Below, one piece after another: positions 60,514 to 60,939 of a DNA stretch of 64,000 nucleotides (its first letter is position 1; every line of letters begins with the position of its first letter). This stretch comes from Candidatus Hodarchaeota archaeon (GTDB lineage: Archaea > Asgardarchaeota > Lokiarchaeia > Sigyniarchaeales > SOKP01), in NCBI GenBank assembly GCA_048886685.1, contig JBHLKM010000010.1, forward strand, positions 106,106 through 170,105. Direction: 5' to 3'. The position numbers and the translations under genes are program-made. The notes under the pieces are model-generated. The model was not told the DNA's origin. It worked only from the letters and a program-made list of their open reading frames with translations, and did no database searches.

Positions 60514-60819
60514 TTACATTAACTCAATTTCTACAAGTACAGTTTCAGGTATTTGGATCTTCATAATGAGATGCATACTTCGCTCATTTGCGATAATTTC
60601 AAAAAGTCTTTTATGAATACGCATCTCGAATTTAGCCCAGGTTGATGTTCCTTGCCCACTTGGAGCTTTCATGATAGGTACCCTGAGTCTTTTTGTAGGA
60701 AGTGGGATTGGTCCATTCTTTCGGATACCTTGGGAGCTACATACTGCAGAAACTTGATCGCATACTGATTTAAGTGCGTCTAATTGCGTAGATGATAATC
60801 GTATGCGTGCTTTTTGTAT
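60514..60819 (-). CDS. rps10: 30S ribosomal protein uS10 (absent from ORF track; ATA start)
   Basis: Hand translation: (M)QKARIRLSSTQLDALKSVCDQVSAVCSSQGIRKNGPIPLPTKRLRVPIMKAPSGQGTSTWAKFEMRIHKRLFEIIANERSMHLIMKIQIPETVLVEIELM*; GGTGA SD 7 nt upstream. Confidence 0.96.
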   Translation of the reverse strand: MQKARIRLSSTQLDALKSVCDQVSAVCSSQGIRKNGPIPLPTKRLRVPIMKAPSGQGTSTWAKFEMRIHKRLFEIIANERSMHLIMKIQIPETVLVEIELM

Positions 60820-60939
60820 GTTTTGCTCACCACTAAAAAGTATTTATAGCTTATGTTTCTTCCTATTTTCTACAATCCTATAATTATTTCTATTAAATAA
60901 ATTTTATTATCTTATTTTTTAAAGGGTATAGTAATAAAA

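Follow-up and report, generated by a model that had tools for sequence, protein, structure and literature searches.

Where does translation of rps10, the gene for the ribosomal protein uS10, begin in a Loki-type Asgard archaeal genome in which the gene appears to have no ATG, GTG or TTG at its 5' end? The original prediction for this locus, which lies in the 64,000-nucleotide stretch of DNA analysed here (hereafter, the window), was that uS10 is initiated at ATA, possibly as a means of tuning expression. The features of the locus are as follows (window positions).

60514..60819, minus strand: rps10 (uS10) coding sequence, 101 codons plus TAA
60514-60516, minus strand: stop codon TAA of uS10
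60670..60672, minus strand: Met50, the first in-frame canonical start codon and the start of a 52-residue database fragment
60817..60819, minus strand: ATA at the Met1 position, the putative start codon
60827..60831, minus strand: Shine-Dalgarno (SD) sequence GGTGA, 7 nt before the ATA and complementary to the 16S rRNA 3' end
60844..60846, minus strand: in-frame TAA that closes the frame upstream, with eight codons between it and the ATA

On the minus strand, the ATA (60819-60817) directly precedes the codons for QKARIRL. Both its position, at Met1 of uS10 and behind the GGTGA, and the absence of any in-frame ATG, GTG or TTG between the upstream TAA and codon 50 were confirmed. The 3' end of the genome's own 16S rRNA (GGATCACCTCCT) pairs with the GGTGA, which is invariant in 23 aligned genomes and is spaced from the codon as in the ATG genes of this genome. 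The 101-residue product scored 121 bits against TIGR01046, the model for uS10 of the archaeal/eukaryotic type (cut-off, 96.25), with residues 2-100 on model positions 1-99, and its residue 1 aligned to Met1 of solved archaeal uS10 chains (PDB 6tmf and 6sw9). A second copy was looked for and none was found; rps10 is single copy in a genome rated 100% complete, and pseudogenisation, which the original prediction had considered unlikely, was not borne out, the single copy being under purifying selection. Judged from the conservation described below, translation of uS10 very probably starts at the AUA, giving the full-length MQKARI... protein.

The comparison of rps10 5' regions placed ATA at the same position in all 28 matching same-genus genomes; in 17 of these 28, an in-frame stop lies only one codon upstream of the ATA and there is therefore no alternative start there. 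For the family as a whole (133 genomes), we searched for the pattern GGTGR-N5-8-ATH-QKAR, with the reversed pattern as a control: 56 genomes from six genera matched with ATA or ATT (55 and 1, respectively), the control pattern gave no match in the 133 genomes, and GGTGR followed by ATG at rps10 was likewise found by pattern search in none of them. Among 80 GTDB loci, codon 1 was ATA in 46, ATT in 1, ATG in 20, TTG in 7, and GTG in 6; that is, the aligned position is exchanged with canonical starts in orthologues, and in other families the gene starts with ATG, with GTG, or with an ATG that lies one or two codons further upstream. In a clade of 34 genomes defined from a tree, codon 1 was ATA in 33 and ATT in 1.

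Residues 2-11 of uS10 are unchanged in the 51 ATA/ATT genomes, the codons for them vary synonymously (about 50% of pairwise comparisons show different synonymous codons), and the reading frame 5' of codon 1 is not conserved. Invariant residues under varying codons point to codon 1, and to neither codon 8 nor codon 50, as the place from which translation is under selection. Each of 13 out of 14 synonymous A/G sites underwent 2-11 changes in the 34-genome clade, and codon 1 never turned into ATG. Note that codons 3 and 6 are also nearly invariant, so the constraint may partly act on the A-rich start region and not on the start codon. Other candidate starts were rejected: the upstream in-frame ATA at 60843 has no SD, is not conserved, and is often stopped off in relatives; codon 8, which is TTG in many relatives (TTA here), would lose invariant residues as a start; and Met50 would lose residues that are invariant across relatives.

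Several loci in the dataset were unusual in their own right. In L041 (genome G041, another family), rps10 begins ATA ATT CAA at the position where the sister genome has GTG GTA CAG, a possible independent ATA start, although there is also an ATG in frame 8 codons upstream. In L040, the intact gene is directly followed by another match to uS10 (residues 59-100; G059 C10:98694-98822, minus strand), which is a duplicated 3' part. One bin of the same genus (L050; G018 C143) carries a second rps10, 79% identical, with a GTG start, which groups with another clade and is probably bin contamination. In L106, the first rps10 codons are tandemly duplicated just 5' of the start (two copies of ATG CAA CGA). 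The contigs of L100, L058, L124 and L129 are titled Nanopelagicaceae, Odinarchaeota or Thorarchaeota, and their rps10 nests in the Lokiarchaeia family; the titles or the bins look wrong.

The transcript and its surroundings were considered with the following additional features.

60894..60908, minus strand: conserved A-rich + TTTATTTA element recognized in the alignment, a probable archaeal BRE/TATA promoter
60940..62079, minus strand: radical SAM gene upstream of rps10, its usual neighbour in the family
62082-62741, minus strand: methyltransferase gene, two genes upstream of rps10 and co-oriented

The promoter-like element was present in all 51 ATA/ATT genomes, 60-103 nt before codon 1, and the rps10 mRNA is probably leadered and monocistronic. 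No consensus pair (0 in 23 sequences) was obtained for the leader, which thus gave no sign of a structured ribosomal-protein operator, and no feedback element was found at rps10. A scan for sigma-70 promoters and terminators was set aside as uninformative for archaea. A radical SAM gene lies upstream in 68 of 84 family loci and a methyltransferase gene in 60 of 84. The detachment of rps10 from EF-1alpha, also noticed originally, is real: EF-1alpha is on another contig (C3), and within the fetched rps10 flanks it occurred in 0 of 84 family loci and in 3 of 20 others. A link between the ATA start and the lost EF-1alpha neighbourhood was considered and rejected, since the detachment is common to ATG-start relatives and is therefore a trait unrelated to the start codon.

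The SD and the start codon vary together. Within the family, rps10 loci with GGTG[AG] had ATA (49) or ATT (1), and those without it had ATG (20), GTG (7), TTG (7), or ATA (1); the median SD pairing energies (kcal/mol) were -7.4 for ATA, -7.1 for TTG, -5.2 for GTG, and +0.8 for ATG, the SD being mostly absent in relatives whose rps10 starts at ATG. Other genes of this genome commonly have GGTGA followed by ATG, and the lack of GGTGR with ATG at rps10 despite this suggests selection against an ATG behind this SD. In an independent-pairs test of the covariation, all pairs were concordant, with 2-3 (at most 6) pairs, too few for significance. These patterns suggest that a strong SD and a weak codon together set the uS10 dose, and expression tuning via the AUA start, as originally proposed, is plausible, with indirect support from the absence of ATG behind the strong SD in the 133 genomes.

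On balance we lean, by a modest degree, towards the explanation that selection maintains the AUA start, used by SD-led initiation with Met-tRNAi, as a means of fixing the dose. In this mechanism, the gene's own promoter would produce the rps10 mRNA with a leader of about 55 nt (as we infer from the element's position); GGUGA would pair with the 16S rRNA 3' end and set the AUA in the P site; and the Met-initiator tRNA (CAU anticodon) would accept AUA with a mismatch at the third position. The initiator tRNA of this genome is standard (A1-U72, three G-C pairs, and CAU anticodon), and SD-led initiation is established in archaea (PMC7531240). A tolerance, in this lineage, of near-cognate starts behind a good SD would let the AUA work, and a strong SD with AUA may give about the same output as ATG without SD does in sister clades. 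A fixed dose would suit a stand-alone ribosomal protein gene whose product has to keep pace with the other ribosomal components. Bacterial AUA and AUU starts behind extended SDs yield about 10-30% of the AUG output (PMC13009471); in Escherichia coli extracts, AUA behaved like AUG in an optimal context (PMC5499595), and thus ATA need not reduce output. As AUU is rejected in vitro by the aIF1 of Sulfolobus (PMC4705826), the proposed mechanism would require relaxed aIF1 control.

Starts elsewhere in the genome were also compared, two further genes with near-cognate starts being the following.

G000 C33:about 8644-8950, minus strand: aIF1 gene, ATT start, with no canonical start before codon 57
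Window 58747..58749, minus strand: ATA start, with a weak SD, of an IMPase-like (inositol monophosphatase-like) gene, the second ATA start in the window

A pooled statistic of SD versus codon over all SD types showed an excess of ATG (237) and TTG (67) and none of ATA or ATT. The sole ATA/ATT excess was at GGTGA with 6-nt spacing (14 ATA and 16 ATT, versus 0-9 and 3-11 at other spacings); it corresponds to about 20-25 genes, and near-cognate starts are thus a minority. An orthologue screen against four relatives was filtered against antisense shadow frames, and near-cognate starts were judged by eye; about 15 of them were convincing among 582 orthologue pairs. For 252 genes, the start could be placed against the canonical start of a relative, and at precisely that position 6 of them carry ATA, ATT or ACG; other genes switch between ATG and ATA, ATT, ACG or CTG at the aligned start. 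We estimate from these sequence counts that 2-4% of the genes of this genome start at ATA, ATT, ATC or ACG; as read from the same comparisons, the rps10 ATA is one case of lineage-wide near-cognate start use, not a device of uS10 only.

The ATT start of aIF1 was found in this genome and in all 21 readable loci of the genus (loci L195-L218). The IMPase-like gene gains 39 codons over the called ORF by its ATA start; of 26 relatives whose rps10 is of the ATA type, 24 have ATG at the start of this gene, and the ATA is thus a private change. Most near-cognate starts other than those of rps10 and aIF1, which keep their weak starts genus-wide, flip in this way between relatives. The radical SAM gene, however, starts at GGTGA + ATA in 12 genomes in which rps10 has a canonical start (including L094, L099, L100, L107, L109, L129 and L130), so that clade-wide fixation is not confined to translation genes.

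Further apparent cases were noted in passing. L125 and L127 have GTA at the radical SAM start position, a possible further non-standard start; a second V4R-like paralogue in the window (about 55975, minus strand) has an apparent ATC start behind AAAGGTGAT, with a similar arrangement in G005; a small conserved gene at G000 C1:419252 (plus strand) has an ACG start where three relatives have ATG, TTG and GTG; and the aIF1 genes of three genomes from other families (L190, L191 and L194) also have no canonical start, with ATA nearby.

The first alternative to a fixed dose is that the AUA is a sensor, which would tie uS10 synthesis to start-codon stringency (aIF1) or to uS10 itself, with more small subunits being supplied at lower fidelity or lower aIF1. 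Feedback of this kind is possible because rps10 and aIF1 are the two starts seen fixed across the genus while most others flip, and aIF1 itself starts at ATT; the autocontrolled AUU start of infC (PMC4705826) and the medium-dependent AUA start of ccpN (PMC13009471) are precedents. However, the leader has no conserved RNA structure, sister clades manage with ATG, TTG or GTG (including G060, which keeps the ATT of aIF1), and GGTGA + ATA has also become fixed in another clade at the radical SAM gene, which is unrelated. No role of uS10 in start-codon choice is known, and we consider a sensor unlikely, if still worth entertaining.

A shade less credible is a neutral origin, in which G-to-A pressure made ATG into ATA, the strong SD rendered the change harmless, and the state was then inherited. 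The genome is AT-rich (31% GC), many ATG-ATA switches are labile (e.g., that of the IMPase-like gene), and the ATA genomes are related and not independent of one another; on the other hand, synonymous sites have diverged by about 50% and A/G sites have reverted repeatedly, whereas GGTGR with ATG occurs in 0 of 133 genomes and ATT only once.

More doubtful than either is a start-codon stringency circuit, in which aIF1 (AUU) would set the reading of near-cognate starts and a conserved set of genes, including uS10, would be wired to aIF1. If it were true, small-subunit synthesis would respond to initiation fidelity, and the archaeal lineage closest to eukaryotes would have its own counterpart of IF3/eIF1 autoregulation, one that acts on a whole regulon.

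That a normal start is supplied by A-to-I editing of the AUA, by splicing, or by frameshifting from an upstream out-of-frame start is highly improbable: an out-of-frame GTG does lie inside the SD, but the leader has no ATG and no conserved structure, the spacing between SD and codon is 6, 7 or 8 nt in different genomes and would need different shifts, and the ATT, ATC, ACG and CTG at other starts cannot stem from one editing event.

Finally, the rps10 start is, as far as the sequences allow us to judge, a near-cognate initiation and not a change of the genetic code. Internal ATA aligns with Ile in 51-64% of positions and with Met in 2-3%, which is the pattern of ATT and ATC rather than that of ATG; the invariant internal Met66, Met82 and Met86 of uS10 are ATG in 51 of 51 genomes, and no internal ATA was found at conserved uS10 Met positions, as a mitochondrial-type code (AUA to Met) would require. 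A tRNA for AUA was identified:

G000 C1:218424-218598, plus strand: tRNA-Ile with UAU anticodon and three apparent introns

This tRNA accounts for the reading of AUA as Ile in elongation. TiaS is the usual AUA-decoding enzyme of archaea; a search of this genome and of 59 relatives of the class Lokiarchaeia gave no match to its domains (PF08489 and PF22641), although controls were detected, and AUA decoding here looks eukaryote-like rather than agmatidine-based. An assembly error, a pseudogene, or AUA reassigned to Met can be dismissed almost entirely, since the same codon stands in 56 separate assemblies, the single copy is under purifying selection, and reassignment, with the missing TiaS in its favour, is contradicted by the alignment of internal ATA as Ile, the ATG at Met66/82/86, and the tRNA-Ile(UAU) gene. 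AUA initiation is thus supported as the sole remaining interpretation; assembly error, second copy, pseudogene and reassignment were all tested and all failed.

The expectation that standard gene callers would miss the gene was only partly right: databases hold the 52-residue fragment of this protein and 94-residue fragments for many relatives, but the NCBI record GCA_048886825.1 calls the full 101 residues from the ATA, and so at least one pipeline does find this start. As uS10 is a phylogenomic marker, database copies of 52 or 94 residues instead of 101 are of practical concern, and a few per cent of the other proteins of the family are truncated likewise. An essential, abundant ribosomal protein starting at AUA in 56 genomes would mean that some Asgard archaea choose starts more loosely, and rps10 would offer a small gene with which to test how the stringency of start selection was set before eukaryotes adopted their strict AUG rule.

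Among archaea, a review gives AUG, GUG and UUG as start codons (PMC7531240), and in the literature searched (most subscription papers being outside reach) we came across no description of an AUA start for any Asgard archaeon. In Haloferax volcanii, profiling placed about 30% of putative alternative sites at near-cognate codons, which were set aside as possible false positives (PMC7261190); unlike those sites, which are not main starts of core genes, the rps10 ATA is conserved and serves an essential gene as its only start. Its apparent initiation, SD-led on a leadered mRNA, is that of archaea as reviewed (PMC7531240), and the product is like archaeal uS10 (TIGR01046; PDB 6tmf and 6sw9) in its full length, its N-terminus and its score above the curated cut-off, but differs in the ATA start, the gene's own probable promoter, and EF-1alpha not being adjacent.

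The closer comparison is with bacteria. In E. coli, infC has an AUU start with autoregulation by IF3 (Butler 1987, as cited in PMC4705826), and rps10 resembles it as a translation-machinery gene with a conserved weak start codon; however, uS10 is not known to be a fidelity factor, and within this genome it is aIF1 (ATT) that corresponds directly to infC. An infC-type autoregulated start was thus rejected for rps10, whose product is not known to act in fidelity and whose weak codon is not lineage-wide (33 of 80 loci have ATG, TTG or GTG). Staphylococcus aureus has near-cognate starts at infC (AUA), ccpN (AUA), citZ (AUA) and cvfC1 (AUU) (PMC13009471). As in those genes, the AUA of rps10 is conserved at the start position, SD-guided, and overlooked by annotation; in contrast to them, rps10 is served by archaeal machinery (aIF1 and aIF2), encodes an essential ribosomal protein, has an SD of 5-6 nt and not an extended one, belongs to a genome with near-cognate starts at a few per cent of genes, and has been recognized by sequence comparison. 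By analogy, the AUA start of rps10 would work like the bacterial SD-guided AUA and AUU starts, such as those of infC and ccpN in S. aureus and infC in E. coli.
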